The notes under the pieces are model-generated. The model ran no database searches. It worked only from the letters and a program-made list of their open reading frames with translations, and was not told where the DNA came from. Both the position numbers and the translations under genes were made by a program. Of a stretch of DNA of 56,933 nt, positions 1,556-56,933 are shown one piece after another. Source of the stretch: Christensenella sp. UBA4247 (GTDB taxonomy: Bacteria > Bacillota > Clostridia > Christensenellales > CAG-1252); contig DGWX01000062.1 in the NCBI GenBank assembly GCA_002395405.1, positions 1 through 56,933 on the forward strand, read 5' to 3'. The number at the start of each line of letters is the position of its first letter. Position 1 is the first letter of the stretch.

Positions 1556-1576
1556 GTTGCCTCTCCTTCCCTTACT

Positions 1577-6758: not shown

Positions 6759-6873
6759 AACCTCCTCCTTCGCCGATTTTCCGTTAAAAAATCACTTTTT
6801 TAGCCCGATTTTTCCTCTCAAACGGCACTTTTTCACGCAAAAAAGATACCGTCACTTACAGTTAGGCTATTTA

Positions 6874-6902
6874 AGCATATCACGCGACTTTTCAAATTGC
6901 AA
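6874..6902 (-). promoter_or_regulatory. Candidate sigma-70-type promoter for the dgt-dnaG-sigA operon
   Basis: The minus strand reads TTGCAA (6897..6902), a 17-nt spacer, then TGATATGCT (extended -10; the hexamer TATGCT is at 6874..6879). This is about 115 nt upstream of the dgt ATG. A second TTGCAA hexamer lies at 6915..6920. The call rests on consensus matching only. Confidence 0.3.
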
Positions 6903-6932
6903 GCATTATTTTTATTGCAAAATGATTTTTTT

Positions 6933-6964
6933 CAAAAAAAAGAACCGACGGAACGTCCGTCGGT
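6933..6964 (-). terminator. Rho-independent terminator downstream of the ECF-S-like gene
   Basis: On the minus strand there is a 9-bp GC-rich stem (ACCGACGGA/TCCGTCGGT, 6944..6952 pairing with 6956..6964) with a 3-nt loop. It is followed directly by TCTTTTTTTTG (6933..6943) and lies about 37 nt after the TAA stop at 7003..7005. Confidence 0.8.
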
Positions 6965-7002
6965 CTCCCGTAAACGATCGATAGGATCCATTCTTTCGTT
7001 TT

Positions 7003-7686
7003 TTATTCTTTCTCTTCCCCTTTTTCGGTCGGCGCGGCTTCTTGCCCTTCCGGCATATTCACCGCCGCGTCCTCGGCAGCGGGCGACTTTTTCTTTCTCT
7101 TGTCTTTCCCGAGCGCCAAACGGAGCGCCGTACAAACGATGGGCGTAATAAGCGCGCACGAAGCAAGTTCGATCACGAAATTTACGCCGAGAAGGCTGAC
7201 AAGAAATGCTTTTCCGATCGTAACGCCGCCGAAAGTCTTCCCAAAGTTAAACGCCGCCATCATGGATACGACGAGCGCCGTGTTCGTTACGACGCCGCAA
7301 AGAGCGGAAACCGTGCTTGCGATAAACGTGCTTGCGTCGTCGCTTCTGTTTTTCAAAAGTTTCTTAACGAGCTTAAACGCAAAATAAGCGGAGATCGGAA
7401 TGATGAGCCTCGGCACGATTGATACGAGAGGATTATAAAAAATCGGGGATAAAAGCCCCGGACGGAGAAACGCCGAGGTCAAAGACGCAAGTCCGAAACA
7501 CAGCCCCGAGAACAGTCCCATTCCAAACCCTTCCACGTCCGCCGCGATAAAGATCGCGATCAGGGGAATAAACGCAACGTCGATCCCCATAAAATTGATC
7601 GGTACGAATACGAAGAGCAAGATCAAGGACAAAAACAAAGCGGCAACCGCAATATCCTTTGACGTGATCTTAATTCTTTTGGTCAT
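7003..7686 (-). CDS. ECF-transporter S-component-like integral membrane protein with an unusual charged C-terminal tail
   Basis: 227-aa ORF with an ATG at 7684..7686 after GGAGG. It has about six hydrophobic segments. NPLVSIVPRLIIPISAYFAF and GVVTNTALVV resemble S-component (PanT/RibU-like) motifs as I remember them. The last ~35 aa (GKDKRKKKSPAAEDAAVNMPEGQEAAPTEKGEEKE) are basic and then acidic. Confidence 0.55.
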   Translation of the reverse strand: MTKRIKITSKDIAVAALFLSLILLFVFVPINFMGIDVAFIPLIAIFIAADVEGFGMGLFSGLCFGLASLTSAFLRPGLLSPIFYNPLVSIVPRLIIPISAYFAFKLVKKLLKNRSDDASTFIASTVSALCGVVTNTALVVSMMAAFNFGKTFGGVTIGKAFLVSLLGVNFVIELASCALITPIVCTALRLALGKDKRKKKSPAAEDAAVNMPEGQEAAPTEKGEEKE

Positions 7687-26426: not shown

Positions 26427-26507
26427 ATTGTTTACCTCTGTTTCTATTGTACTATGTCCGTCGGGCATAAGTAACTTAAATATACTTAATATTATTATTT
26501 ATATGCG

Positions 26508-32500: not shown

Positions 32501-35500
32501 GCATTCCACTCAACGTCCTTATCCGAGAAGGTGTAAGCGATATTCGAGCCTGCGTCGTAAGTAACTTTGACCGTCTTGGGATAGTTGTTATCATCCGTCG
32601 GATCGTATCCTTCGATACGGCTCGAACCCTTGATACCCGCAACGACGATATCGCCGGTACGGGTCAAGTACATCGGATCGACGTCCGTAACGATATCGAG
32701 CGCGGTCGTATCGAGCATAGACGCGGTAAACACGCGCTCTTTGATCTTTACGAACACACGGAAGAATTGATATCCGATATTCTCGTTTCCGTAACGGAAA
32801 GTCGCATACGAGCTGTTGCTTCCGAGATAGGTATTATCCACGTTTTCGAGATTCCAATCCACGAGAGTCTTTTTGTAGATCCTCTCGCCCGATTCGTCCG
32901 TTTCTCCTTCAAAGGCAAGTTCGACATAACGCGGATAGCTGTACAAGCTCTTACTTTCGGGCAGTCCGTCCACCGCCGCCTTATAGGGATCGAATTCAAA
33001 CGTATAGCTTTCGTCGATCTTGTAATCCACAATAAGCTCACTCTTGAACACGATCGGAATATGCGGATAGAGATGATATCCGATCTCGCTGTTTCCGATA
33101 TAGGCGTCCGTATAATAGGTCGCGCCCGCGTAACCCGAGGTAAAGTCGGATTCCGTCCAGCGGATCTCGTACTCATGAACGCCCATCGTTCCGAATTCCG
33201 CCGTAACGCGATCGGGGAGGGTCGGATGATCGCCCGCGGCGAAGGTCAGGAAGTTACCGCTGACCTGCTTGCCGTTCTCCGTCCAACGGAAACCGAGGAT
33301 CTCGGAGATGGGTTGCGGCGTGACGATGATTTGAATATCGACGTGATAGTTCGCCGTATCCCCCGTTCCGTACGTCAAATGCAGGTTATATTTTCCTCCG
33401 GCGTAGGAATCGGATACTTCGCTGACGTCCCAAGTAACGACTTGACCGCCCGCTTCCGTTCCGTCAAACGCGTAATACATTCCGTTCTCGCCGTAGCCGT
33501 TCGTCATGTAAACGTTGATGATCTTCGGCAAATAGTCTTCGAGATCTTTGACCTTATCGGGCGTAATGGTCAGCGGGAGTTCTAAGTTCTCGCCTTTTAT
33601 GATCGGCGTCCAAACGCCGTTTATCTCCGCATACTTGGGCAAGCGGATCGCGCTGTACGGAACTTGAAGCGGAATTTCTTTATTGTAATTCAAAACGCTT
33701 CCGAGGAGATAATAGGTGATGGCGATCTTATCGCTGCCGTCCGAGGGGCGCGCGATCGATCCGGGAACGGCGTTCGAAGCGTTCGGAGTCGAGCCTTGAA
33801 TTACGTCACCCGTCGGATCCACGAGGAAGGTGCTGTCTTGCCATACGATCGAAACGGTATCCTCTTCATCGTGCGGTTCGAGCGTTCCGGAAACGTATTT
33901 GACTTTCGCCTTATCGGGAAGATCTTCGAGATAATCCGCAACGCCGTCGCCATTTTGGTCGATGTTAAACACGTCGCCGAGAGTCCTTACGACGCTGCCG
34001 TCAAAATCCATCGTGACGCTGTTTTCGTCCACGACGCCGAGACGAATGCCCGTCGAAGTCAAAACGATCTGATAGAACTCGCCCGTTCTGTTATTCGCCA
34101 TACGGAGCAAGATCTTTCTGAACAGAGACGTTCCGCCGTATCGGTTGGAGTCGAATTCCACGAGGACGTACGCCGTGTCGCCGCGCTTCAAGGTAATGAA
34201 AGGCAGGATCTTGGCAAGAACGTGGATGACCTGATCGCCCAAGACGGAGCTGATCGCCGCGTCGATCGCGCCGTTCAAAAGACGAACGAGTACTCTCGTA
34301 ACGGTATTGCCCGGATCGATCGCGTCGTGGATCGCGCCTTTCAGCATTCCGAGGATGCCGCGATAGGTAGCATAGGTCATTTGTGCGGGAACCGAGGCAG
34401 GCGTTCCGGTAAATTCGGCGATCATTTCGCTCAAAGAATCCAGGATGCCTTTCAGCGCAAGCGCGTCGATATCGATCCTGACGCTGCTGACCGTTTTCGC
34501 GATACCGCTGTTTGCGTTTTGACCGTAAGCGCTTTGCAAAACGCTGTCCTGCTTGGATTTCTCCATGATCGTGCCCGTCGTTTCGTCGATCATACCGTAT
34601 CCGAGATTGAGTTCGATACCCGTGATCGGATGCTCTTTTGCGGCTTTGATCGCGTCTTCATCGTCCGCTTCCTCGTCCAGGGGTTCCGGTTTGTCATACT
34701 TGGATACCGTTTTTCCGGAAACCATATCCGAAATATCGATGGACGCGACCTTGAAGTCGATACCCGGTCTGTAATCTCCGAGGAAGATAATGGAGATCTT
34801 AAACTGGATATAGAGATACAAGTCCGAATCACTGTAAAATACCGAAACTCTGTCGATATGACCCGCAATGATCTGCAACGCGTCGGACAAAAGGCTCGCT
34901 ATACCCGAAGCGTAATTCTCCGCAGCGATCATTCCGATATCCTTTCCTATGCTCACGATACCGGGCGTATCGGTGTAATCGGTCAACACGTCGAACAACG
35001 TTGCGCGGATCGCGTGTATAAACTTGGAATCCGCACGGGAAAGTTGCAAAAGCACGGAGCGCTTTTGTCCCGAGACCACCGTTCCGACTTTGTCGGTGTA
35101 ATCCATATTTTGGGTGATCTTAATGCGCATCGAATCCGGTCTGAACTCGTCGTCGTTATCGGTTTCGACCTTGGGCGGATATAAGCCGTCCACAACCGAT
35201 TCGAGCAAACTGCCGAGCCAGCTTTGACCGTTATGGTTGGCAAGACCGATCGCACCGCCGAGCGGAAGCGCGCTGTACTCGGATGTATCGATACCCAACG
35301 CCATGAAGTTCGAAGAAGTATAGTCGATCGAGAAGGAAGAAACCGCGAACGAGATCGTGTTCGAACGCGTGTTCGTTCCCAATCTTTCGGGCGCGTCGAT
35401 CGTAATGCCGATTTCGTCGATCCCTTCGTCCAGTTTGAGTTTGAGGGTCGCGCCGATCGTCTTCGGCAAGCCTACCCTGTCGATCGCCTGACTGACCACG

Positions 35501-38500
35501 CCTTCTTGGATATTAAAGAGTCCGAGGAATCTTTCAAGCATTCCGGCGTCCAGATAGAGAGAAGCTTCGTAGGGCGTTTGCGGTTTCGAACCCGCGGCAA
35601 GCGCTTTCAAAGTCAAAGTCAAATTCGCGTTATCGATCGTGTACTCCTTATCCGATTCGGCGGAAGAAGATTCTTCTCCATCTTCCTCGCTTTCCTCTTC
35701 GTCTTCCGTAACGTTCGTAGCTTCACGGATCAACTTTTCGATGATCTCTCCGATGGATTCGACTTTGAGAACGTCTTTCATGATCGTCAATCCGCCTTCT
35801 TTAAGATCGGCGTCCAAAACTTTCGAAAGAGTTTGTTCGAGGTTGATACCGCTCGCGCGCAGTTTTACGAATCCGAGATCGGACAAGTCGAGATAGAGAC
35901 TGCCGCCGTCCTCGTCCAAAGTCGAGCCGTCGTAATAAATGCCCAACAATGTCAGGTTGTTATAACCGTCCGAGAAGTTGACCTTGATTTTGAAACAGGT
36001 CTTCGAGAAGTTCTTAAAGTTCAGCGCAAGGTCGATATTGATATTAAACGACCAAGTGGACGCGGCGTTTCTCTTAACCGTGACCGAACCTTTCTCCGAA
36101 CCGAGAATGCATTCCACGAGCGCTTCGAAGAACTCGAAGGTCTGATTGCGATAGGCGTCAAGCGATAAGCCCGAACCCGTATTCGCGGCAACGGCGAAAT
36201 CGAGAGTCGCGTTCAATTTGAAGTTCAAAACGTCAAGCTGCATGATGTCGGAATAGTTTTCGAGCTGCTTGTATCCGTCGAAGTTCGTATTTCTCGCGCC
36301 GACGTAGTAGGTAAAGGTCCCGCCCGATTTTCCGGCATAGGTATCGGACGCGTTTTTGGAATCGGGGAGGTAAATATGCGTGCTGACGGAAGAATCATAT
36401 CTCTGATTGATTCCGATCCTATTCGTCGGACTTCCCACGCGCAATTTCGCCCCGTTTACTTTGGCGGTAACGCCGACCCAGTTCGATCCCGTCGTTCCGA
36501 AATCGTCTCCCGAAACTTTTTTATTCAGATAACCGTTCAGCGTAATCGACCAACCGGAAGGCGAAGCGCTGTCGTTATTGTCATAATAGAGTTCCGCCTT
36601 AAAGGTTTTCTTATAATCTTCGATCGGGCCGAGGATCGAACTCGGAATATTTACGCCGAGCATATCGATCAAAAGCATCAACATCGATACGTTGAGTCCC
36701 ACGCCGATCTGCGAATTGCTCATCGACAAAATAAAGCGCGCCGCCGTTCCGTAATCCGTCTTCATATCCGATCCGGTGTTATTGATCAAATCGATGTAGT
36801 TTTGCAAAACGGAGGGGATCGCCTCTTCGTCTTCCGTATCGATTCCGAGGAGGAGCCAAAGCGCGTTTTTGAGTTTTACGCCGTCGCTCGCAGCAGCGGC
36901 CTCCGCGGGTGCCTCGGCTGCCGCCGCCTCCGCCGCGGAATCAGACGACTTCGTGTAATCGTTCCAGAAACTGATGTCGAACACGTCCGCCAAAACGCCC
37001 GAAAGATCCAGCCCCGTAACTTTGAGTCCGCTGAGACCGAGCATCGGCAATGCCGCGTAAGCCGTTTCGTTCGCGTTCAAATAATACAAACCGATGAGAA
37101 GCGTCGTTTGATTCGTGGACGGGTTCACTTGCGCGATTTCGAGAAGAAGCTCGGTTTTGCTGCTGTCAGCCAAATCCAAGAACATTTCGAGGCTGATCCT
37201 GAGATTCAATCTCGTGGTTTCTTCGCCGTTATCCACGATGAGGTTCGCCGTATCGTTTTCGGTCAGTCCGAGCGACTTTTCAAACAGCGATTTCATCGCG
37301 ATCGTAACCGTTTCCACGCCGCCCGAGATCGCAAGATCGATCGAGGTGGAGAGATGGATCTCCATTTCGTCGATCGTCGGGTATTTCAGATAACCGGAAA
37401 GCTTAGACGCAAAGTTATGCGCGTTATTGAAGGAAGTATAGCTTGCGCCGGCGCTGCTGACGACCGATTCCGCCTTAAAGCGAGTTAAAGTAATACCCAC
37501 GCTGTAATCGTCGTTCTCGGAAGCGAGTTTGATATACGTATCGCGCATTCCTTGCGCCGTGGTCGCTTTGAGTTCCGCTTTGATGTAAGCAAAGTTATCG
37601 TTGCAAAGATAGGTTTCGTATCCCATCATCAACAGCAAGTTATTAAACACGTTCGGGTTAAGAACGATCATACTCATCTTGTTTCCGAGCTGGATCGCGG
37701 AAACGAGGCTGTCGATATACGGGGTATATTGCGCCACGCTCTTCGGCAACGAAGTGGATCCGGAGCCTCCGGAAGGAAGAACGGCTTCGTCCTTGCAATC
37801 GCATTCGCATTCTTTATTTGCGCAAAGCAGCACGCCGTTTTCGCCTTTACAGCTACCGTTATCGATACATTCCTGATCGGTACAGCCGCAGGAAAGCATG
37901 CAATGACGGCAAGTACATTGCTCTCTTTCCGACTGACCGGCAAAATCGCAGTACTCGTCAAACACGCAGTAATGGTTCGGGCTTCTCTGGCAGTAAACGC
38001 TCGTACAAACGTAGCAAAGCAGATAACCGCCCTCGCTCATACAGCCGCCGTGATCGATACACGCTTGGTTCGTACAGCCGCATTCGAGATACGTGCAATC
38101 GCAACCGCAGTTTTCTCCGTCGCAGATACGAACGCCGTCTTTATAACAGCCGCCGTTCAAAAGGCAAGATTGATCGGTACAACCGCATTTCAATTTGCAG
38201 TGCGAGCAAGTGCAATCCGTTCCCGCGCAACGGACGACTCTCTTACCGAACGCGTAAGTAATACAGCTTCCCGCTTCCACGCAATCGGGGTGCGAGCAGC
38301 CGCAGGGAAGAACGATCGCGCCGAGCGAAGAATAGGTATCCACCGAGCGCGCTCTTTCAAACGCGTTTACGATGGGCGACACGATATCCGCTTCGATACG
38401 GTAACTTCCGAGCTCGAACGCGTCGAGGTTGATATAGAGATAGCTCGTAACGTTCTCGCCCTTTCCTTCGTAATAAACGTAAGCGCACTTTGCGCCCGCC

Positions 38501-53500: not shown

Positions 53501-56500
53501 TCCACGTAATTATTTTCGTCATAAGCGAGTTTTACGCCTACGTCGATTCCGTCGATAAAGTTTACGCGAAGAGACGGCGTCAGTCTCGGGAGCGAATCGC
53601 CGAGTCCGCCCACGCCGAGGATACTCATTACGCGCTTAAAGCTGTCTTGCATTAGCGTAACGCCGATGCCGCGCTTCGTAAGATCGATGCGATCGAAAAG
53701 CCCGATGACGCCGTCAAGCGCGTCCGCCTCTGCCGCGCTTTCCGAAACGCAGTGCGAACAGGTGCAACCGTAAGCGCAGCTCGATCCGTCGCAATAAGCG
53801 GCATTCAAACATTCTTCGCAGTTACAACCGCAAGAAAGATTGGATACTTTGATACGGAATTTCGGAACGTCCATTCCGTAAACGGCGCCGTCGCTTGCGA
53901 GAGTGGAAAGACCCTCCGCGTCCACGTACAAATACAATCCGTCGAAATAGACTCTGACGAGAAGATCGCCGTCTTTCAAAAGCTCTATGCGCGCGTTAAA
54001 ATGCAACCCGTCCGAAAGATCGAAATTCGAACTGACGCGCAAAACGAATCGGCCCGAGAAATCTTCTTTAACGTCGAAAGTCAGCGCTGTGTTCATCAAT
54101 ACTTCGCCGATGCTGTTCGGAACGATCCCTCCGAGCTCTTCCATAAAGTCGGTAAAATCGTACTGCATATCGGAGAAGGCGTAATCGAGATCCGCTTCGA
54201 ATTGAACGTAGATCGAATCGAGCGAAGTCGCGTCGCGGTATTCCCTGCCGGCGCTCTCATATACGCTTTGCGGAACGACCTCTCTTCTTGCGAGAGTTGC
54301 GGAAATATCGGATACTTTCATAGCCACGTATGGGTTTTTATATCCGAGCGCGCCTTCGGAGGTATCGAAAGCGATCTTCGCGCCGATCTCGAATCCGTCC
54401 ACGAGGCGAACGTAAACTTTGCTCGAAGAATCGAGATCCAAAACGGTATCGGTGTTCTTATCGTCCGTCAAAAGATCGATCAAAGTCGCGATAAAGCGAT
54501 CGGCGAGAAGAACGGAGATCTCGTCTCCGATATATACGCCGCCCATCATTCCGCCTACGATATCCAAGATTTGCTTACTCGAAAGCGCGCTCTCCGCCGC
54601 CGCGGGGATCGAGGGCGTTTCTCTTTCCGCTCCGATTGCGGTTCGGAAGAAATCTTCGAGCTTGATCTTATACATAAACTTCGGAAGCGTCGTTCCGTCC
54701 GCGCTGATAGAAAGCCCCGTTGCGTCCACAAACACGGCGCTTTCGCCCGCCGCGTATTCTCCGTAATAAAGCGCGATCACAAGGTCGCCCAAAGCGCCCG
54801 ACGCGTCTTGCTTATAGATCTTTACGGCAAGCTCGACGTTCGCAAGGTTCAGTTCGACGTTCGCGCCTCCGAAGAAGTTGGACATTTTGATAGGATCAAA
54901 AGCGATATTCGCGTCCACTTGAATATCCAGCCCGCCCGAGATCGGCTCTTTTACTCCGAGCACGCAGGCAAGTTCGGCAACGATATTGCCGAGCGCGTCG
55001 CCGAGATTGACTTCTTTTAAGCTGCCCGTATCGCCCGAAAGGGATAAGAGGGCGGAAAGGGAAATATTCGAAAATTCTTCGAGCGAAGAATAACCCGCCG
55101 AAGAAAAATCGTCTTTATCCACGATAAATTTCGGTCTGTATCCGAAAGAAAGTTGATCCAAAGAAACGCGAATAAACGTATCTTCGGTTAGTTTAACGTC
55201 GGCGTTCAGGAACAAGCCGAACCCGGAGATCAATCCGAGTTCCACTCTGATCGAGCGGATCGCCACGTCCACGCTGGACAAGGTCTCGTTTACTCCGTTT
55301 ACGATACTTGCGAACAAGTCGAATTTATCTTGCGCGGACTTGATGTCGGCGGCATAATCGGCGATCAATTGCTCTTTTGCGCGAAGAAGGATCTCTTTTC
55401 CCTCTTTCAACCTGTCGAGCTTGTTGTTCTCTTCGGTGATCCTGCCTTCCAAGCGAACGATCTCGCCTATTCCGATACTGCCCGACGATCTACCGTCCGC
55501 AAGTTGGCGTTCGAGAGCGGCGATCTCGGCTTCTTTTTCCTCGATCTCCTTCTGTTTCGCTTCTATATCCTTCTCCACGGCGGCGACCGACGTGTCGTTC
55601 GCTTCAGCGTCGATGGCTTTTTTAAGATCGTCCGACGCGTCGCGAGCCAAGCCTTCCACAACGGACAAAATAACCGAACGATCCATTGTTACCGCAACGG
55701 ACTTACGCCCGCCCGGACGGCGTTCCATCGTGTTCAAAACGCGAACGATAATATCGAACACGTCAAGCTTCGCGTAACTTCTGTCTTCTCCCGCCGCCGC
55801 CACGTAAGCGTACGTTCCGGTTTGCGTAATGTTCGAAAGCGCCTCGTCATAATCGTCGCCCTCTTCTCCGAAAGTTTCCACGATAAGCGAACGGATCGCT
55901 TCGCCTTCCGCGGTCGCTTCGCTCGCCGTTCCGAGAAGCGATGCGAGCGTTTCGGTGACAAAGGAATTCAAAACGTCCGCAACGTTCAATCCTTCGTACA
56001 CGAATTTCGGGAGATTCGCGTAAGAGAAATCCACGTACAGGGAATTTTTGGTCCCTATATAATAAACCGTTCCGAGAAGGACGTTTCCTTTCGTCGTAAC
56101 TTCATAAAGGTAAAGCTCTATGTAGTTCTTTTCGTTATAATTCCAGCTGATCTCGGCGTTTACGTCCACATACAAGCCGATCGTTCCTTCTCCGAGCGTC
56201 AACGTACGCTCGCCGAACGATCCGAGCGACGAAAGCCCGAAGAACTCGGTCAGGACGCCGCCGATCAAATTGTCGATCGTTACCTGCTTTTCGCTTCCGT
56301 TTTCAAGATCGACTTTGAAAGAAACTTCGAAGTTCGTAAGCCCGAACTTGCGGTAATCGGTAAACTCGGGGAACACGATGGCTTCCACCTGACGGGAATC
56401 GGAACCGTAATACTCGTTGTCCATAATGAAGTCCACGGCGAAGGTTTCCGCTCCGTAACCGAGATCCACGTCGATATTCGTCAGCTTTCCGTCCGAAACG

Positions 56501-56933
56501 TTGATCACGAAATCGCAGGTAATATTTTCGAAGGTATAGTTCGTGATCGTGGTCAGCGTAATGCCGAACACGGAAGTTAAGATGCTGTCCACCCGGAATT
56601 CGGCAAGCAAAGTTTTAACGACGGGGTTGCCGATCAAGCTCATGACGGAATTGAGCATTTTGTTGAGATCGGTCGTAACCGCGATCCTCGTCAATCCGTC
56701 TTTTTCGGTCTTGGTCGCGCTCTTAACGGCAGAGGAGGTAATGTTGTTTACGAGAGATCCGACCGATGTATTCAAACCGGGGATCGAAATATCCATAACG
56801 CCGTCGATCACGTTTACGACTTTATCGCCGAGCCTGTCCGCAACGTCCAGCGCGTCTCTCAAACTGAAATCGTCCAAATAAACGCTTGCTCCGCCCTTCT
56901 CGTTCGGAACGTTGAGATAGAACACGCTGTTCA
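26536..56933 (-). CDS. Giant surface protein 2 (at least 10,131 codons, 5'-truncated by the window): beta-rich module array with Cys-rich linkers, an Ig-like domain array and a C-terminal Listeria-Bacteroides-type repeat
   Basis: Uninterrupted 30.4-kb ORF. The track 'M' at 56925 is an internal GTG, and the two codons upstream of it (56926..56931, Asn-Ser) are also sense codons, so the true start lies beyond the window. The TGA stop is at 26536..26538. Confidence 0.9.
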   Translation of the reverse strand, partial: NSVFYLNVPNEKGGASVYLDDFSLRDALDVADRLGDKVVNVIDGVMDISIPGLNTSVGSLVNNITSSAVKSATKTEKDGLTRIAVTTDLNKMLNSVMSLIGNPVVKTLLAEFRVDSILTSVFGITLTTITNYTFENITCDFVINVSDGKLTNIDVDLGYGAETFAVDFIMDNEYYGSDSRQVEAIVFPEFTDYRKFGLTNFEVSFKVDLENGSEKQVTIDNLIGGVLTEFFGLSSLGSFGERTLTLGEGTIGLYVDVNAEISWNYNEKNYIELYLYEVTTKGNVLLGTVYYIGTKNSLYVDFSYANLPKFVYEGLNVADVLNSFVTETLASLLGTASEATAEGEAIRSLIVETFGEEGDDYDEALSNITQTGTYAYVAAAGEDRSYAKLDVFDIIVRVLNTMERRPGGRKSVAVTMDRSVILSVVEGLARDASDDLKKAIDAEANDTSVAAVEKDIEAKQKEIEEKEAEIAALERQLADGRSSGSIGIGEIVRLEGRITEENNKLDRLKEGKEILLRAKEQLIADYAADIKSAQDKFDLFASIVNGVNETLSSVDVAIRSIRVELGLISGFGLFLNADVKLTEDTFIRVSLDQLSFGYRPKFIVDKDDFSSAGYSSLEEFSNISLSALLSLSGDTGSLKEVNLGDALGNIVAELACVLGVKEPISGGLDIQVDANIAFDPIKMSNFFGGANVELNLANVELAVKIYKQDASGALGDLVIALYYGEYAAGESAVFVDATGLSISADGTTLPKFMYKIKLEDFFRTAIGAERETPSIPAAAESALSSKQILDIVGGMMGGVYIGDEISVLLADRFIATLIDLLTDDKNTDTVLDLDSSSKVYVRLVDGFEIGAKIAFDTSEGALGYKNPYVAMKVSDISATLARREVVPQSVYESAGREYRDATSLDSIYVQFEADLDYAFSDMQYDFTDFMEELGGIVPNSIGEVLMNTALTFDVKEDFSGRFVLRVSSNFDLSDGLHFNARIELLKDGDLLVRVYFDGLYLYVDAEGLSTLASDGAVYGMDVPKFRIKVSNLSCGCNCEECLNAAYCDGSSCAYGCTCSHCVSESAAEADALDGVIGLFDRIDLTKRGIGVTLMQDSFKRVMSILGVGGLGDSLPRLTPSLRVNFIDGIDVGVKLAYDENNYVDLTVGNLGVQFAHRDLGLDRSQYGELNFGSFGKVSAEVSGSLTVSFEQGNEKLAALVRQFVDGAKFGIDVRRMTRWDLSFDLKANVDLTEMDFSDLSTVSAVVPTAEIYFALFEDDRILGTRELMLALYFDGPSSTAYLRAPWLGVEPISYAVDIDALFLSEVAAAFESLSEAEETAESLGRLAVLMLDQNGISVSISGALIAGVISAMELNVGSLDFEKLIESVKVGITLDGGVSVNLGAVLPGAFVNASIDGIVLGLDKSLSLSSYMYGNGLSKEDYVFLGRGTDLDLSRVSAGITVTLDLETGTFRYDATDSIRSVLDMLKLDDLIGDIASELSLYLGADGNVGAALNAPLTIRLDVNADLASFEFLQFALSVKGGDGSEYAYVAYDSETDTAYVSLGLIGLPEIKITGTSLMEYIRGAISSAEASEPVLSCGCNCDECLQNGTCGKSAATATCSSSCTCTCHYPDLECGCMNPACKTLQSCFHEENGEQVLNEGCDCRVHARKSVLEIINDVVDYVYLDGTVGVVGVVTKANSLAVVTSLLGLKLILPEFVVSANVNLEDVAVDIGILAKDGDDLHLDLGIGIGNLAVGFKSRDLFGDLSRFRDWRELSVGFSVAADVTFSMDGEYAKTITNFVSENIEGEALKVQIGNNTAEDLVTMALGLELAANVTLNGLLEPDAELWLSFYLKTGDGELYGRTSSLISLYYNSAEETQFGKEEALYISGSAYGAENAVRISGLGLHGAVLDLIAPYLQRMQPSAAESEGNGTLEETSGLLAKILQVVFSEEDGLVVSADGGALDLVLSLMRLGSYRLSALVPPTDGLKATLSSDGLSVVLQMNENSFLEVAVHRASLFFDSSLTERTEWKDKIIGNEGITAGASALGEAGAFHIAAEMSVEAKTGATMNEQGEIIGEHVASTEGGYLGALEFLLTSDAQNHAHYSVKVELAASGLKAEGLNLASLKGSALKDAIGKMVSGLKLQATITISDLLVTREGDTVYENGKPVLGVYYDYDETDIVYVRVPAFDLSLQIPNLVDLASILSSLIPEETAEAGGTTEGGFEAPDILKFIDAISLSDTAIAIDLSSQILSRVMLLAGIELTLPEIYSTVTVGNLSSVANSVNEGIGVHVASALLPEFMFDLKIGSFDMYLEETASDLLEPMTDFFGNLQNYATVDSLQANVQFEADLSFGLGENVSNGDGNAWRFESLLSDLDLNFGIGILENLKGHYKLAINASVNVAEGIENLYGLEIYLALYSVDNGAYEKEFSVYYGKGVLGLNFEPLLGVDPFELDLDLGSIVGGIFARNSASAAEDGDPVNAGKKDFASLVSALSGLVSVYVGDRSVALSVAGTVLHTALVFLGYENYFPVTAEGVTPHSTEAMNAIAEGDYTVRLNYDNDTSETFTYSHSYARKKLILSLTGTNVASIRLLSRENGYDRTFNYESEWEKIFDIDARAGTLTWAKSEAFAALKLGTYDVIVVKTNGQTSKFKMTKKISSYTYKEGLHLTGKKVESLVILGAGEAGADIILTPEATIATGAIGDYFAINHYVGGLTLSLGEGIKANLSLKEDTYLEVSVEDVSISMTSAGVERKDKNGEVEIYTDNIKSVRFDFSVDLTARAAKGLSIDLDEAVGSLFDSLLGGLLKDADIAFNVDESIDLDYTLDISANVKFDDNTVDLAHSELSVAIIDRDDDSEVFSVYYVGTEEPTGALYVNIPYFDLKLKINEIDFVSMIDRLGVFSLPSAAAEEGEESGSVSTGALILSMLFGVDLYQNGVQVKFASDLLNIAAKLAGLESVSLPSLKDESKLRLYIDKDIDKLLELDLVFDTNANSSLSLVVNQPEITLNGKMEYKSNLGFFESISEAGSISIDLSASVEIDSSEDNNIDVGSLASLLLAKANKEEERHLLIKTDKATTTYSLNASVILSVSGVYNDLLGLIDGGTLSVSGMLRSLLKDLYAHVSFERMTSVDGTITSEGSLFEAYFYNNCLYVDLSYLGMPKIALPVNLADLIPNGGSAAAESGLLCGCTNPECVSHGGSFDYSHPCRKNALGDRYDGCSCSYCSSSLDETLSLIYNARGLLIKMESAMFAKALSLLDIDATLDMSFNARLHKEDGVSATLTFKGVDGVGDPAYTSVALSVEKPEIVLGGLINGLIEDTSDYGYLNDLEYLHVSFSLDLKALFKNSAEAGVYYMDGFLSELFGGERLPVSLLGDIQGDITLTVAGNVHLKDVNRSEILLRITSEGEDQIVLYYGGEYDLVAYLPWIDDTFNMTFDFDLSKLLGKELTETINGLSERISSAIYNAIGTDAIAAAEEEGENEEEGSSDVLDVALSVIESISLTSAGRIVVHFAGDVVERFTDYMLGSTLSLGDMEYLELYADLIHQEIGLETELRNGANIPNNELSLKLHDYGVALVQKDLGFDKSLYNTTDDYSYLHFKLTGDVSYSFPDGVYDFGGLIKTVADNVNIPVTFQGLRGDFKLNVEMKICVEEIKKSEILIELVWNDNYVVQAYMDMLQGEIYLYLPWFDVQKVLIKNVDTSFISDLLPSASTSEVSAAESSGLASSAAARYATLVARIIDGIVITDGSNPSYGEKGAIVNVSNNFLDVLLSEFASALEIELPIDFTGVKLAIRKNLMTFDLDFENEEQDGFISGEFRIKRFGFTEVNIRPEVTQNVTEFTTLLDYAEESPLVLEYVYVDTELYLGAEFIEQRLNLDDIFMYIFGEGFALKSEVINAAFRLHISGNLNVQRFERSELLIDLYMTSRGVENLFIRGYLVGLDQAIYIDAPLLGLYGVKVTGVDIGKLLGGSNESGESETTADLDCGCDCAECVKNGGCYGTVNGVLTRLCDSNCNCSHCVVPGCTCIHPVCVAMGSCYDENGVKRCDCDCGCTRLSCGCNNMECYLNGSCVGSIKHCEEGCDCTCCVVKGCGCDCEECVQNGSCYDSNGKKICEGDCDCSCTSLTCGCSDPACQARGGCYVNGIRACDGITCGCDCTKLEDGCTCAKCELNGGCYDASGRKLCDEKCSCEHCVLPCGCTNPYCVSIGSCGEFGVYCKDYGEECCSCHAPEKCECNNAECLEKGCVAGYRNVYQVAGETGAVYYDKENDTYYRYVAGEKGAERSDLTNAERATLVSDEATSLPKIVRIEAIHRAGCEEEKCTCSLVYRLACYCRNPECILHGQCIKTFKLIDGKVTPICYCDKNDLFSVGGLVRDAVTKVEFVGMHSGTNTALTNGDWKKYMTIVDGTIAFNDANDYLLAMDDYAWTVKIYTGSSSPFRTLTYKIAGASCVYLNECKCHTGLLACYCTNPNHIKAGTCPMNCEYCNGACRTYYSNSISGIFDNVTFTPAGLSFRSSDTFLASVFYLISGNTIDDIEVPKIAVDFALNYITREKTVQVSGITAQNVTKVELIGKSGTTTLTGSEIASYMTISNGAITFSDGNEKLSALPDYAWTVKIYTSGTSPVATFEYEMYSGTSHDFLANLALRANIAIEQSLNGSYTGNYSTIGIGFGGLTIRSGKQMMDVRDVRDPSVAADFTTYQPMDRLQKITAKAEMHIEIHPENTEVELGPMLNGLFPGIDTLMQIVVDATTWTENTLLNVAVEISLDMNNLERTQIMLTVTKGANPTASSVLAFLFYDGEDEAPKLYAKIPALGIKGTWFGGVTIEDFLSYTVDPLPCGCTNVLCVDNGSCYDEYGVRICDGEDCGCKCAAFECECNCASCVKAGVCDGTRCEANCACDHHASSAAESGALICGCAEEECLVRGSCTPTCPTNCDGSCHFTTTLVVPLSCGCTDPVCLERGSCFSTCKNCGDGSCHDKETAEEMFNSTEDIIFGIAKHITSITISEAAGVQAEFKPSLITNILIALGYDMELSGIDSIGTLRVGFKVDALSDISINAEVDFRNDADADKPSYIRMTIDNIKIDLNKNLLEVPTDLVGSLATYSELTEDSYVNFAFSGEMSFDTSKTVIALGNTISAILGEQVDFNLAFTDGRATFAYKIAGNISLGSIDVKGVLAGKTLDVKKVVQEADLLFEVIDKTNDKTFLSMYVTGGYAYVNLGIIKSAPPVCFDVLSLIETADEEKISTADGDQKKTYDVDYYSDVPELVTIGRMYHYQSGGSPEFRVALKGYAVEKVVIVNNSTDEEITATGDLIDKYFTFTYAGTSSDPRYGDTIVEMPINKEVEALAKDGNNYYTVYIVTEGGAVSLQLKVASADAYVSPSNATIAMIIGVLGNVTFKLDEIVVNLNKNAMKIFEEFFGMSLNAPNADAAVRLGLDDTIYLGATVGISDENGKGVEVDLSLGSFSIEIGKVNLLSLLDAKNSMKSYVQSGVLDTTAYSDVMNDLTTAYASLTADITLNASGDSASSVSGKNSSIFYPNGALFTFGDTFAEMIGNVLVNLGLDSSLNGTYEMTLRAYLKNTDFDTLTLSDLNAYLQISEKNGNSYFEVLTIYFDGMYLYLNLNPEYFPYVSVSSTLIDLDSAIDFWSEDVIVGAAAQAEEDSATNGFNIASVMKLVSGATIGKGKIALNLSENFVGGLLAMLLPEFEGVSLLLDDTYVQVNLLDGEVELGLTTAGVFEPEKYVVFGASSYVGVDYVSQNEAYLKVFNGDAIADLSGSYLLTATLSGGTVRYPINVDDMKKTYLYTDKHVWSEMISVQTNRFRINTGKYESGVYKVTFTLTDGTTRSASATCLLSGTASYVTLNGINPNNIASVRVELSYLRIPLSVSETGVTASTVARAVELTGIETVKISGKSEFDYFFKSVSGNKFTFSKQALSSLGGKSYTAYFFGKTTAVGVKGYTVQTGSDVTITASGITEANLGKIVFVRNFTSSEKAPEFQSYAVNKTEDETIFLDRKGNPFKNYTADQTFSTKIVLKDIEIAPELPARYKSGASAYATGGVYLTNEQKKYTYNYETGAVSSVNGLALSDYVNWREQEYYLTTTLLIDASFKENTVGYSLFGNKTVGLGSVIDEVIGVLRMTESGRLNKTISLKIELKLVAEDVWASSVLFTFAFDDVEAAGAKCAYVYYEGKGENVTSYLYINLDAFELGSYRIEADIVSPIVNAFERARSVDTYSSLGAIVLPCGCSHPDCVEAGSCITYAFGKRVVRCAGTDCTCSHCKLKCGCTDQSCLLNGGCYKDGVRICDGENCGCDCTYLECGCTNQACIDHGGCMSEGGYLLCYVCTSVYCQRSPNHYCVFDEYCDFAGQSEREQCTCRHCMLSCGCTDQECIDNGSCKGENGVLLCANKECECDCKDEAVLPSGGSGSTSLPKSVAQYTPYIDSLVSAIQLGNKMSMIVLNPNVFNNLLLMMGYETYLCNDNFAYIKAELKATTAQGMRDTYIKLASENDDYSVGITLTRFKAESVVSSAGASYTSFNNAHNFASKLSGYLKYPTIDEMEIHLSTSIDLAISGGVETVTIAMKSLFEKSLGLTENDTANLIVDNGEETTRLNLRISLEMFLDLADSSKTELLLEIAQVNPSTNQTTLLIGLYYLNANETAYAALPMLGLSGLKVTGLDLSGVLADVFDISFWNDYTKSSDSAAEAAAAEAPAEAAAASDGVKLKNALWLLLGIDTEDEEAIPSVLQNYIDLINNTGSDMKTDYGTAARFILSMSNSQIGVGLNVSMLMLLIDMLGVNIPSSILGPIEDYKKTFKAELYYDNNDSASPSGWSITLNGYLNKKVSGDDFGTTGSNWVGVTAKVNGAKLRVGSPTNRIGINQRYDSSVSTHIYLPDSKNASDTYAGKSGGTFTYYVGARNTNFDGYKQLENYSDIMQLDVLNFKLNATLDFAVAANTGSGLSLDAYRNQTFEFFEALVECILGSEKGSVTVKRNAASTWSFNINIDLALNFKNFSKTCFKIKVNFSDGYNNLTLLGIYYDGSTLDEDGGSLYLDLSDLGFVKLRASGINLEQTLSKVLDADLKEGGLTIMKDVLKVESIGEIIEKLIREATNVTEDEEESEEDGEESSSAESDKEYTIDNANLTLTLKALAAGSKPQTPYEASLYLDAGMLERFLGLFNIQEGVVSQAIDRVGLPKTIGATLKLKLDEGIDEIGITIDAPERLGTNTRSNTISFAVSSFSIDYTSSNFMALGIDTSEYSALPLGGAIGLANHNGQSWLGSLLESVVDGLYPPKVETDNDDEFRPDSMRIKITQNMDYTDKVGTVVSGQKRSVLLQLSRADSKFIHAIRATLFDVLTDYTDTPGIVSIGKDIGMIAAENYASGIASLLSDALQIIAGHIDRVSVFYSDSDLYLYIQFKISIIFLGDYRPGIDFKVASIDISDMVSGKTVSKYDKPEPLDEEADDEDAIKAAKEHPITGIELNLGYGMIDETTGTIMEKSKQDSVLQSAYGQNANSGIAKTVSSVRIDIDALALKGILDSLSEMIAEFTGTPASVPAQMTYATYRGILGMLKGAIHDAIDPGNTVTRVLVRLLNGAIDAAISSVLGDQVIHVLAKILPFITLKRGDTAYVLVEFDSNRYGGTSLFRKILLRMANNRTGEFYQIVLTSTGIRLGVVDENSVTMDFDGSVVRTLGDVFNIDQNGDGVADYLEDLPDKAKVKYVSGTLEPHDEEDTVSIVWQDSTFLVDPTGDVIQGSTPNASNAVPGSIARPSDGSDKIAITYYLLGSVLNYNKEIPLQVPYSAIRLPKYAEINGVWTPIIKGENLELPLTITPDKVKDLEDYLPKIINVYMTNGYGENGMYYAFDGTEAGGQVVTWDVSEVSDSYAGGKYNLHLTYGTGDTANYHVDIQIIVTPQPISEILGFRWTENGKQVSGNFLTFAAGDHPTLPDRVTAEFGTMGVHEYEIRWTESDFTSGYAGATYYTDAYIGNSEIGYHLYPHIPIVFKSELIVDYKIDESYTFEFDPYKAAVDGLPESKSLYSYPRYVELAFEGETDESGERIYKKTLVDWNLENVDNTYLGSNSSYATFRYGNENIGYQFFRVFVKIKERVFTASMLDTTALDIVTDVDPMYLTRTGDIVVAGIKGSSRIEGYDPTDDNNYPKTVKVTYDAGSNIAYTFSDKDVEWNASSVSVKYNAGVQYVSLKVGNELGGYQTIRLPITIEDRSVTAIDLTSVRAKYEFDPYEENAVDAKWYPENTSGGNKATVVFSSQNSGQYPLTWDLSEVDQSYKGGTFTAYARVGTDSAGYQLVPFTVVVKSKIIKNLQIEALSFDPYDESINPLSMDDYTDASGATVHSPYVKSAIAVFKDDSTHTFSNLIWDITEIGKIWNYKGGSCFVTVKFGNEYGGYQTYSVPVTVACREIASVELNEENTIIFDPYGGVDPRLEANYYERVNVTFSNGEKGVVDVIWDISNVINGYRGFKSASGSDLFEEFPVAIRAGNSVCGYQTYTDIKVRILNREIVGSSITEQKLDVYSDNDLASVVTVTFKDGTERSMNVSWINENYRTDINSIDFPDWDDQDFTADARIGDAIGGYQIITVPVKIYKRLATALYIDNVKVSKDKANVTDDLEIDYERYRIEIDPYENSYDLPSTVRLAFNDGTDTYINAVWDMRNVKIDLEGGVYGGYNPDTHGAILKIGNARTGYINVEFMVVVKNRVLKTVSVGSGRYVPAIYSYDVQTGQKGDLISAIVNDAYLDSAFPNNVYLEFRERTGVNALTSSAPMIKMISNWNLEYRKDANGNNVPVKASFSLGSEKAGDRTYSFDVLTVFRSLTVPEDVVIEINPYQISLPQTLTVNVGGAVGYNFETGKYYALTPDVCGCTCASCVERGYCGTVDPNTGVLTSDCDCGCSCNAIRSTFRLDWSKASIDYNYRGSYREDVLVYIGNSSCGYQPGRIKVRVLDKTVQSVSVEEFEIDPYDYSTLPQSTSVTFTDNTSGELKLTANISNAVKAEGNDAIGFFQGGLYTITAYLGDRTGGYQAQRIKLRVKDRTIKGLLIDGVNVMEEGFTVKTYGEIGGLTKKPDEMLTVLFEGGDSATLKVLWSSVAIDYGYQGAAYTKLGLLVGNAEGGYQRVILDARVERAVALSAVAEEGFLYNTLLGAAGLPENVVVAMDKNSYLSAMTLPAVEWSNTFVVDRENGVYRSSVKVGNEVSGYQWIPVTLPLSEITLLTVQSRVFEIGAYDLIRTDEEGRLLDGNGNLFTLLSEVGEGVYSELYVKLLETPAYSYYGGLFSVKAEVGNELTGYMSETDDGNEILLSVRVNAQLIRTLYVEDNGLKNIVEYYNLPLPQNPYAMPNVKKGDKLVALMQDDSFTELSVVGVYFTQDGVRREGVSYSGGSNIVYEIVVGDDAHGTQTFSYTISVAAKVIDSVPELSDMWVDPFSYTLPKEVTVYFKDGDSASLPALYVANGVNFDSSLVRYTGGSFSVTALVGDDMGGRQSVPFKLNVRQSLVTGLYSDTLITIDQLEARVRLPESLVLTVRNGQGTKTITCSVENGLIDNGNWTVALKDGKYVLVAQDGKTGSWIFENVDLTYTGGTYYAIYLYGNERSGYQKVRVPVEVVEKKIDYEKLQYVSARSSGGVTLAPFETVIRAAIGEYFELPTELWITFEDGTGTEVDVTWNTEGVDLTKAGVYTVSATVLEQTVSVTIEITDDRLVYSDDVVTLFVLPRGGAYSLPSSIRQTIYVKSQAGGFTPQSELAPEMKIDWGVLPSSSVEDSYELEGVISNGTFRWIKKVKLYFHSNYVTFIRTLAPSEAFGSEEGERRAKVEVGSSFTASDLPEILIAVYDGAAEITKTTAANWRVSYALDAEGNILPINGEINDLRVLDTSKAGYRYVLTGEILDRYGREVTFANGENLTYTVEVSENVNIAEMYAVSQNEFIFGETRHIELSLAVGVSIQSIEYLKDGEIVGGVSYDPITGALLADSGYPTDAGEYLARICLVGYEKTAVVESPYIVNAKDVTSEIVVINTLQRYKGGSETYELTYGTRSGGVALRAVYSLIEGEAGSLLGGLPCAVGTYRAVISASGLNYTGSVTVELKVTESITVNFYRDGAKISSTEVGDGMYLAGVPTPTKSGFVFAGWYYDEEGANAFAVSEKVSASNPYVQALTLNLYAKFVSAE
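26539..26769 (-). other. C-terminal Listeria-Bacteroides repeat (Flg_new-type) domain of giant protein 2
   Basis: ITVNFYRDGAKISSTEVGDGMYLAGVPTPTKSGFVFAGWYYDEEGANAFAVSEKVSASNPYVQALTLNLYAKF. The [GY]-x-F-x-GWY-x-D...LYAKW/F pattern is the hallmark of this repeat. Confidence 0.7.
26770..27290 (-). repeat. Two MBG-like units preceding the terminal repeat
   Basis: GYPTDAGEYLARICLVGYEKTAVVESPYIVNAKDVT and GGLPCAVGTYRAVISASGLNYTGSVTVELKVTE resemble the AGxY...NY...I-x-P MBG pattern also seen in giant protein 1. Confidence 0.45.
27300..33960 (-). repeat. Array of roughly 24 tandem Ig-like (Big_4-like) domains of about 90-100 aa
   Basis: Recurrent pattern [LP]P-x-[TS]V-x-V-x-[FY]-x-DG...V-x-W[DN]...Y-x-GG-x-[YF]...[VI]GN-x-x-GGYQ-x-x-x-[VI]P[VI]-x-V-x-x-[RK]. 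By eye I counted at least 15-17 GYQ-type endings (for example GNELGGYQTIRLPITIEDR, GNEYGGYQTYSVPVTVACR, GDAIGGYQIITVPVKIYKR, GNERSGYQKVRVPVEVVEK). There is also a canonical-looking Big_4 unit (LPTELWITFEDGTGTEVDVTWNTEGVDLTKAGVYTVSATV). Confidence 0.6.
30334..30435 (-). repeat. Cys-rich module locus 9 (1 copy embedded in an Ig-like domain, visible aa 8831-8864)
   Basis: CGCTCASCVERGYCGTVDPNTGVLTSDCDCGCSC. It is flanked by Ig-like domain sequence (...LPQTLTVNVGGAVGYNFETGKYYALTPDV | module | NAIRSTFRLDWSKASIDYNYRGSYREDVLVYIGNSSCGYQPGRIKVRVLDK). Confidence 0.8.
37795..38304 (-). repeat. Cys-rich module locus 8 (4 copies, visible aa 6208-6377)
   Basis: CGCSHPDCVEAGSCITYAFGKRVVRCAGTDCTCSHC / CGCTDQSCLLNGGCYKDGVRICDGENCGCDC / CGCTNQACIDHGGCMSEGGYLLCYVCTSVYC...CTCRHC / CGCTDQECIDNGSCKGENGVLLCANKECECDC. 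Confidence 0.8.
42097..42510 (-). repeat. Cys-rich module locus 7 (4 copies, visible aa 4806-4943)
   Basis: CGCTNVLCVDNGSCYDEYGVRICDGEDCGCKC / CECNCASCVKAGVCDGTRCEANCACDHH / CGCAEEECLVRGSCTPTCPTNCDGSCH / CGCTDPVCLERGSCFSTCKNCGDGSCH. Confidence 0.8.
43552..43671 (-). repeat. Cys-rich module locus 6 (variant copy with a His at one Cys position, visible aa 4419-4458)
   Basis: CVYLNECKCHTGLLACYCTNPNHIKAGTCPMNCEYCNGAC. CYCTNPNH aligns with CGCTNPEC in other copies. Confidence 0.7.
43936..44073 (-). repeat. Cys-rich module locus 5 (variant copy, visible aa 4285-4330)
   Basis: CEEEKCTCSLVYRLACYCRNPECILHGQCIKTFKLIDGKVTPICYC. Confidence 0.7.
44284..45063 (-). repeat. Cys-rich module locus 4: about 7.5 tandem copies, 63 Cys in 260 aa (visible aa 3955-4214)
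   Basis: CGCDCAECVKNGGCYGTVNGVLTRLCDSNCNCSHCVVPG / CTCIHPVCVAMGSCYDENGVKRCDCDCGCTRLS / CGCNNMECYLNGSCVGSIKHCEEGCDCTCCVVKG / CGCDCEECVQNGSCYDSNGKKICEGDCDCSCTSLT / CGCSDPACQARGGCYVNGIRACDGITCGCDCTKLEDG / CTCAKCELNGGCYDASGRKLCDEKCSCEHCVLP / CGCTNPYCVSIGSCGEFGVYCKDYGEECCSCHAPEK / CECNNAECLEKGC. The Cys count was done by hand. Confidence 0.85.
47332..47445 (-). repeat. Cys-rich module locus 3 (1 degenerate copy, visible aa 3161-3198)
   Basis: CGCTNPECVSHGGSFDYSHPCRKNALGDRYDGCSCSYC, preceded by GGSAAAESGLL. Confidence 0.75.
52000..52200 (-). repeat. Cys-rich module locus 2 (2 copies, visible aa 1576-1642)
   Basis: CGCNCDECLQNGTCGKSAATATCSSSCTCTCHYPDLECGCMNPACKTLQSCFHEENGEQVLNEGCDC. Confidence 0.8.
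53749..53832 (-). repeat. Cys-rich module locus 1 (1 copy, visible aa 1032-1059)
   Basis: CGCNCEECLNAAYCDGSSCAYGCTCSHC, read directly from the reverse complement. It follows ...VPKFRIKVSNLS. Confidence 0.8.
55312..55629 (-). other. Predicted coiled-coil insert of about 106 aa (aa 433-538 of the visible ORF)
   Basis: DLKKAIDAEANDTSVAAVEKDIEAKQKEIEEKEAEIAALERQLADGRSS...RLEGRITEENNKLDRLKEGKEILLRAKEQLIADYAADIKSAQDKFDLF. The segment is heptad-like and rich in Glu/Lys/Ala/Leu. Confidence 0.5.

Follow-up and report, generated by a model that had tools for sequence, protein, structure and literature searches.

Contig DGWX01000062.1 of Christensenella sp. UBA4247 (assembly GCA_002395405.1), analysed here over a stretch of 56,933 nucleotides (the window), carries on its minus strand a single giant open reading frame (ORF), G1 (26536-56933, stop codon at 26536-26538), which encodes at least 10,131 amino acids (aa) and continues past the edge of the window. 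Within its first ~7,657 residues (33961-56933; residue numbers refer to the visible part of G1, counted from the window edge), G1 contains 20 copies of a beta-rich module with a core of ~245-320 aa (residues 26-7400), preceded by the last 25 residues of one more. This module has no significant match in Pfam, NCBIfam, the sequences of the PDB or, through Foldseek, the structures of the PDB and BFVD, and appears to be a new domain family, possibly with a new fold, in a giant surface protein. As to its role, G1 probably, although by no means certainly, acts as an acidic surface tether, built like beads on a string and fixed to the membrane by a lipid anchor, which displays a C-terminal region of Ig-like domains and Listeria-Bacteroides repeats.

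G1 is a real gene under purifying selection, because the ratio of nonsynonymous to synonymous substitution rates (dN/dS) against its ortholog in Christensenella sp. UBA1252 (L012) is 0.15 (3,435 codons compared; dS is close to saturation). Its visible product is strongly acidic in composition (13.9% D+E vs 7.5% K+R), and no transmembrane segment was found in it. Because the alignment of G1 starts at ortholog residue ~147, the window is judged to lack only ~148 residues at the N-terminus, the lipobox among them. The N-termini of two orthologs (L012 and L013) read MTKNLHTKIL...VACAC and ...LVAFAC, and a lipoprotein signal peptide with lipobox is present in P0002, P0004, P0005 and P0029 (the first, an N-terminal ortholog fragment, is encoded at the metagenomic locus L003, sample ERZ28612943, scaffold SHIW14-1_SAMN02144231, whose name suggests a sheep rumen data set; such an origin would agree with a gut or rumen habitat of the bacterium studied here). 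A PROSITE-type lipobox pattern occurs in 28 of the 33 long relatives that start with M, and the other five look N-terminally truncated. We infer that full-length G1 measures ~10,300 aa and belongs, as a putative lipoprotein, to an uncultured Bacillota bacterium of the gut or rumen that resembles Christensenella.

The module array and its relatives

A hidden Markov model (HMM) built from five hand-cut units recognised 13 copies at once and ~22 upon iteration; naive HMM iteration had drifted into the linkers, and the borders of the 20 units in our reference alignment (A1) were curated by hand. In leave-one-out comparisons, the 19 remaining units yielded an HMM that matched the omitted one in all 20 cases, mostly along the whole model, with E-values ranging from 2e-6 for U20, the most divergent copy, to 7e-38 for U04, and the module HMM had 0 matches in ten residue shuffles of the array region. 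The units are 11-22% identical to the reference unit in A1, which lacks any conserved stretch of 7-10 columns. A whole-protein self-BLAST of G1 returned the identity match only, a chunked one gave a sparse dot-plot over residues 1-7650, and no DNA-level tandem repeat was found across the array. What the copies share is a skeleton: the first helix is followed by ...LLxLLGxxLxLP..., and SELLLELY...GVYYDG...LYVDL..LGLPKVKI closes the unit. No residue is better conserved than the Tyr of LYVD (85%). Inserts lengthen five modules, U02 by a coiled coil and U09, U14, U17 and U19 by small beta domains, and they share a single hot-spot, at HMM columns ~55-62, after helix alpha2.

A first-pass annotation, made from the DNA letters and their translations, had described about 20 copies of a ~300-aa unit over the first ~7,650 residues, sharing a motif skeleton alone (LLG...LP near the start; SE[IL], YY, LY[VIL][DN]L and LP at the end) and separated by acidic or Cys-rich linkers. 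Its interval, its copy number, its skeleton and its linkers (both 'AAE' and Cys-rich ones) are recovered here, and the leave-one-out HMMs and the shuffles make the periodicity objective. The unit length becomes the core range given above, which five copies exceed through their inserts; the array stops at residue 7400, as residues ~7401-7657 are not recognised as module; and the divergence of the copies is confirmed, with the 20-35% identity estimated by eye giving way to the lower measured values.

The search of protein databases with the module HMM that this annotation had also proposed was run as an exhaustive profile search of 1.84 billion (1.84e9) representative proteins, only 127 of which contain the module at E<=1e-3 (40 at E<=1e-30); together with members of their sequence clusters, they supply ~730 module instances. 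Most of these proteins have 5,000-7,900 aa and 8-16 matched stretches, and those that are named come from metagenome-assembled genomes (MAGs) of 'Clostridiales bacterium' or 'Bacillota bacterium'. Their modules occupy the first 4,000-5,600 residues, the first HMM match after the lipobox spanning the C-terminal half of the model only, whereas the C-terminal part is free of modules and has occasional CarboxypepD_reg, Big_1 or Big_4 beta-sandwiches. In a word-indexed protein search, an 851-aa query retrieved a single partial ortholog (P0001, encoded in a Clostridia MAG), and the A1 profile retrieved no match, which is a limit of the word index. Orthologs of G1 are present in the MAGs of Christensenella sp. 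UBA1252 (73% amino-acid and 74% nucleotide identity), Christensenella sp. UBA3217 (52%) and Clostridiales bacterium UBA10307 (55%), and P0130 (HCU55758.1) is collinear with G1 across 7,687 aligned positions at 52% identity.

To judge from these comparisons, the array is an ancient expansion and not a recent amplification, as had been supposed in the first pass, because it predates the divergence of the ortholog lineages: identity is 11-22% between paralogous units but 47-73% between collinear orthologs along thousands of residues, distant relatives already have 8-16 units, and no repeat is left at the DNA level.

Predicted fold of the module

In keeping with the initial failure to assign the module to a known family, Pfam-A over the 7,657 residues (E<=1) and an NCBIfam scan returned coiled-coil noise only, an hmmscan of 67 single or paired units against Pfam (E<=10) revealed no family matched by more than one member, and the A1 profile had no match among all PDB sequences (best E=1). 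The known extender or stalk families (BIg, FIVAR, G5-E, Rib, Cna-B and MucBP) had no Pfam or NCBIfam match in the array, and no description of the module family was found in the literature searched.

AlphaFold2 modelled U12 from the 20-unit alignment with a mean predicted local distance difference test (pLDDT) of 67, the C-terminal half reaching 83-95, and the U12-U13 pair from a 67-row alignment of register-consistent pairs and singles with a pLDDT of 68.4 and a predicted TM-score (pTM) of 0.46. The U12 and U13 models agree on the order alpha1, beta1, beta2, alpha2, beta3, beta4, beta5, beta6, alpha3, beta7-beta11, alpha4, in which beta5, beta6 and beta7 have ~14 residues each and the helices 7-15; the linker between the two units (model residues 236-252) has a pLDDT <50. 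Independently of these models, a mean-field direct coupling analysis (DCA) of 716 units (effective number of sequences, Meff, 284) recovers the ladders beta5-6, 6-7, 7-8, 8-9 and 10-11, contacts inside the N-terminal alpha1/beta1/beta2/alpha2 subdomain, and the non-adjacent contacts beta7-beta10/11, beta9-beta11 and beta4-beta6. Because of these three classes of contacts, the predictions indicate a compact folded-over sheet, not an open ribbon.

This bears on one of the folds considered in the first pass, a continuous repeating beta-groove (RBG) of the AsmA/TamB/BLTP type, which would make G1 a conduit moving lipids outward from the membrane. Such proteins are, like G1, long and beta-rich, with periodic strand blocks, short helices and, as proposed for G1, an N-terminal membrane anchor. 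In the AlphaFold2 model, each unit can be read as two blocks of ~five strands plus a short helix (beta3-beta6b/alpha3 and beta7-beta11/alpha4), which is reminiscent of RBG units, the strands are long, and the curved-sheet proteins LptD and ApoB-100 are among the non-significant Foldseek matches. However, the AsmA, TamB, DUF490 and Chorein families had no match at E<=10 among the 67 single or paired units, E. coli TamB, compared with A1 by hhalign, scored a probability of 0.15%, and the non-adjacent strand contacts are typical of a closed compact domain. Moreover, the units are interrupted by acidic linkers of low model confidence, by Cys arrays that reach ~500 aa and by inserted domains, the anchor seen in orthologs and relatives is a lipobox and not a transmembrane helix, and the Bacillota host, of Gram-positive type, gives, as far as its affiliation allows one to judge, no evidence of an outer membrane. 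Such a conduit is the least supported of the alternatives and strikes us as very improbable. As regards the three options of the first pass (a solenoid or fibre, tandem beta-sandwiches, or such a groove), tandem discrete globular beta-rich domains are favoured over the groove because the linkers are of low confidence, acidic or Cys-rich and hold extra domains, because of the TamB comparison, and because of the ortholog lipobox.

Modelling followed by Foldseek, likewise suggested in the first pass (for 2-3 consecutive units), was carried out on one and two units and gave no significant structural match: nothing was found at E<=0.001 for a single unit against the PDB (best E 0.2, TM <=0.21), for two units against the PDB (best E 0.015, TM <=0.16) or for two units against BFVD (best E 0.02). 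The non-significant top list of the single unit comprises ORP8, JHBP and SPLUNC1 (E 0.2-1, TM 0.11-0.21), and the module resembles LolA/LppX-like and TULIP domains in its size (~200-250 aa), antiparallel sheet and few helices. Another interpretation takes G1 as a multivalent binder or sequestering surface whose modules would be functional ligand binders, either of glycans in the manner of lectins or carbohydrate-binding modules (CBMs) or of hydrophobic or lipid molecules in a LolA- or TULIP-like cavity. Lipid-binding folds (ORP8, JHBP, SPLUNC1/BPIFA1, LolA-like) are prominent, though not significantly so, in the top list, the ~11 strands and 3-4 short helices per unit are like those of LolA-like proteins, and the 11-22% identity of paralogous modules that are each 47-73% conserved between species fits diversified specificities. 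The amino-sugar gene neighbourhood of distant relatives (see below) also speaks for ligand binding. Nevertheless, every single-unit match in the PDB stays at E>=0.2 and TM<=0.21, the helices of 7-15 residues are too short for the central helix of TULIP, there is no profile match to these folds, no CBM or lectin family was matched at E<=10 among the 67 members, and the neighbourhood may reflect shared genome ancestry only. LolA/LppX-like and TULIP folds are not known to form 20-copy tandem arrays. We consider ligand binding a rather unlikely explanation of the array.

Linkers, C-terminal region and gene neighbourhood

The modules (Table 1) are joined by linkers of ~5 to >500 aa, which either start with an acidic A-A/E-E motif or are Cys-rich, and some of which contain whole extra domains. 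The Cys-rich segments consist of a ~35-aa repeat with 8 Cys (CGC-x4-C-x3-G-x-C ... C ... C-x-C-x-C). Its strict first-four-Cys pattern occurs at 18 sites in G1, 17 of them within residues 1-7650, to which looser copies recognised by eye would add, and the same residues hold 188 of the 204 Cys of G1. Cys content amounts to 0.9-3.8% in the ortholog group vs 0.1-0.3% in distant relatives, the Cys arrays being confined to the former. The Cys-rich region had no match in the protein database, Pfam or the PDB; for this repeat, in a surface protein of an anaerobe, metal binding and a disulfide knot are both conceivable.

Small beta-rich domains of ~70-130 aa, with motifs such as EGDYTV..Y and YAWTVKIYT, lie within or between modules, the nested ones always after helix alpha2, and have no Pfam match. 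The coiled coil inserted in U02 has ~115 residues, with a high content of E, K, A, Q and L. It is also conserved in ortholog P0130, and it has weak SMC/DUF4407-type matches at residues 431-542.

The C-terminal part of G1 has separate repeats of ~85-110 aa (offset peaks of 80-110 aa in self-comparison). Two stretches of Big_4 (PF07532, 99.5 bits) and a terminal Flg_new, or Listeria-Bacteroides repeat (PF09479, 35.5 bits), are matched above the gathering score there, in residues 7458-10131 only and not in the module, and the protein ends in an Flg_new repeat, ...LYAKFVSAE. An LPXTG motif is not evident in the last 300 residues by reading, no dedicated motif search having been made. Two further proteins, P0051 and P0082, are relatives of the G1 C-terminal region (26539-33960) at 24-29% identity.

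Table 1. Features of G1 and neighbouring genes in the window (strand, and residues of visible G1 where given)
Feature	Position	Strand	G1 residues	Remarks
Tail of preceding half-module	56857-56931	-	1-25	VFYLNVPNEKGG, LYVD..LP motif
U01	55897-56856	-	26-345	module HMM and leave-one-out
U02	54607-55896	-	346-775	coiled-coil insert
Coiled-coil insert of U02	55297-55644	-	~430-545	
U03	53824-54609	-	775-1036	Cys-rich linker after it
Cys-rich linker	53737-53832	-	1034-1065	
U04	52987-53736	-	1066-1315	module HMM and leave-one-out
U05	52234-52986	-	1316-1566	Cys-rich linker after it
Cys-rich linker	52012-52224	-	1570-1640	
U06	51220-52014	-	1640-1904	module HMM and leave-one-out
U07	50368-51219	-	1905-2188	module HMM and leave-one-out
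U08	49576-50367	-	2189-2452	module HMM and leave-one-out
U09	48277-49575	-	2453-2885	split by ~200 aa of small beta domains; separate N-part and C-part matches
Small beta domains in U09	48750-49344	-	~2530-2728	
U10	47467-48279	-	2885-3155	Cys-rich linker after it
Cys-rich linker	47338-47454	-	3160-3198	
U11	46591-47340	-	3198-3447	module HMM and leave-one-out
U12	45862-46590	-	3448-3690	modelled singly and with U13
U13	45097-45861	-	3691-3945	modelled with U12
Long inter-module region	43537-45096	-	3946-4465	Cys-rich; 8-Cys repeat array and small beta domain
U14	42514-43536	-	4466-4806	small beta domain inserted
Small beta domain in U14	43132-43344	-	~4530-4600	
Cys-rich repeat array	42097-42513	-	4807-4945	
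U15	41302-42096	-	4946-5210	beta domain after it
Small beta domain	40915-41301	-	5211-5339	
U16	40057-40914	-	5340-5625	module HMM and leave-one-out
U17	38332-40056	-	5626-6200	split by ~300-390 aa of beta domains; N-part 5629-5697, C-part 6087-6190
Small beta domains in U17	~38932-39819	-		
Cys-rich repeat array	37777-38310	-	6208-6385	
U18	36928-37746	-	6396-6668	module HMM and leave-one-out
U19	35662-36879	-	6685-7090	insert after N-terminal subdomain
U20	34732-35649	-	7095-7400	most divergent copy
Module-free C-terminal part of G1	26539-34731	-		~2,730 aa; repeats, Big_4, Flg_new
G2	7737-26468	-		6,243 aa
Housekeeping cluster	854-7686	-		downstream of G2

A second giant ORF, G2, begins 67 nt downstream of G1 in the same orientation. 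It is rich in Gly, Ser and Asn and has an N-terminal signal anchor and, at the other end, a transmembrane helix followed by a Lys-rich stretch and then an acidic tail; its sole Pfam match is a YDG domain, and the module HMM did not find the G1 module in it. G2 may be a partner of G1; distant relatives have other genes downstream of the giant one, either Mem_trans or a 2,046-aa RCC1/Big protein. The long antisense ORFs on the plus strand opposite both giants look like a by-product of coding-strand composition. The cluster downstream of G2 (ECF S-component, HD dGTPase, dnaG, rpoD, trmK, NIF3 and a Zn-ribbon gene) is a typical Bacillota chromosomal context.

The adjacency of two giants bears on a further interpretation, in which lipid-anchored giants lie along the surface as an envelope coat or scaffold, a lateral S-layer-like sheath with the Cys-knot arrays as rigid or metal-bridged joints. 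A membrane-anchored G2 directly downstream and in the same orientation would suit such a coat, as would the N-terminal lipid anchor of the orthologs combined with no visible C-terminal wall anchor, the extreme acidity of G1 and the restriction of the family to one lineage of uncultured Bacillota. By contrast, neither SLH nor other known coat domains were found in G1 with Pfam, the flexible acidic linkers fit a tether better than a lattice, and the Cys arrays occur only in the ortholog group (2% Cys vs 0.1-0.3% in distant relatives). A coat thus conceived appears unlikely.

Distant relatives (L001, L004, L006, L007, L008, L009, L005 and L011) have a common neighbourhood upstream of the giant gene, which includes a conserved ~280-aa protein without Pfam match (A5; motifs VDVGPRII and YGGHRLWxSPE) and a varying mix of PIG-L deacetylase, ROK kinase, GH20 hexosaminidase, and HGSNAT_cat or transglutaminase-like protein. 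This shared neighbourhood could denote a functional link to amino-sugar metabolism or mere synteny of related genomes. At the ortholog locus L003, a different small lipoprotein lies upstream of the giant gene. The 280-aa gene upstream in L003 was considered as a counterpart of the conserved ~280-aa neighbour and rejected, the two not being homologous, so that no partner gene can be claimed family-wide.

A putative lipid-anchored tether

If G1 is a tether, its N-terminal Cys would carry a lipid that anchors it in the cytoplasmic membrane, on the side of the outer leaflet. Next in the chain would come ~21 independently folded domains of ~250 aa. Each is predicted to begin with the alpha1-beta1-beta2-alpha2 subdomain, the rest being a body of ~9 antiparallel strands, of which three have ~14 residues. 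Acidic linkers, thought of as flexible, would probably join the copies, together with arrays of 8-Cys knots and with small beta domains nested among them. The array would then serve as a long spacer or tether with the module as its extender domain; at ~4-5 nm per module (14-residue strands measure ~4.6 nm), 20 of them may extend over the order of 100 nm. The Big_4 and Listeria-Bacteroides-repeat region could in this way be carried beyond the wall, where it may adhere to particles, host material or partner cells. This is, we infer, the most economical mechanism.

Ebh of S. aureus, SiiE of Salmonella and MpIBP of Marinomonas are giant repetitive surface adhesins with extender domains. Giant repetitive surface proteins, Giant1-5, have also been described in A. 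kunkeei (PMC12863079). Such giant adhesins resemble G1 in their size (~5,000 to >10,000 aa), in being secreted and acidic, in the dozens of tandem folded domains that serve as a stalk, as those of G1 would, in distal Ig-like or repeat domains of ligand-binding type and, often, in adjacent giant genes. G1 differs from them in its larger, mixed alpha/beta unit of ~250 aa with helices and ~11 strands, which falls outside the known extender families (BIg, FIVAR-GA, G5-E, Rib and SHIRT), in its far more divergent copies (11-22%), in the 8-Cys arrays among its linkers, and in its anchor, which to judge from the orthologs is an N-terminal lipobox instead of LPXTG or a type I secretion system (T1SS). 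West-Roberts et al. (bioRxiv 10.1101/2023.11.21.568195) described large Clostridia gut proteins dominated by RCC1, Listeria-Bacteroides, YG and dockerin repeats. These giants have in common with G1 the mammalian gut or rumen as habitat, a length >10,000 aa and the Listeria-Bacteroides repeat, but in G1 75% of the protein is a module outside every Pfam model.

Several observations weigh against the tether. The window does not reach the lipobox, which is seen in orthologs and relatives only, AlphaFold2 confidence is moderate (mean pLDDT 67-68, with 55-80 in the N-terminal half of the unit), and G1 was not found to have the 'head' of a known adhesin with its defined ligand. The models may accommodate a cavity or groove in the module, the 11-22% identity among modules could be compatible with diversified binding functions rather than a passive spacer, and the PIG-L, ROK and GH20 neighbours in distant relatives hint at a link with amino-sugar metabolism of which a tether makes no use. 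A bolder proposal, which we regard as doubtful, is that the module is a truly new fold and that the lipid-anchored chain of ~21 modules is a >100-nm tether specific to Christensenellales-like bacteria. By means of it, these bacteria would attach physically to partners such as methanogens or plant particles, or else the cavities of its modules would hold a hydrophobic or glycolipid cargo; in both cases the tether would represent a new class of one-gene Gram-positive surface organelle.

Christensenellaceae and related rumen and gut Clostridia are abundant, heritable, health-associated and of ecological importance, and very few studies have dealt with the biology of their cell surface. Orphan repeats in a giant surface protein are no surprise in themselves, and the impact of the present family is limited by its rarity and by a function that we could only deduce. 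Nonetheless, this bacterium spends >30 kb of a small genome on one putative lipoprotein, three quarters of which have no counterpart in Pfam, NCBIfam or the PDB. The 20-unit seed alignment, the ~730 instances and the lipobox context provide a handle for annotating such giants, and the module family itself may offer one on a possibly new fold and on the way in which these bacteria would attach to particles, hosts or syntrophic partners.

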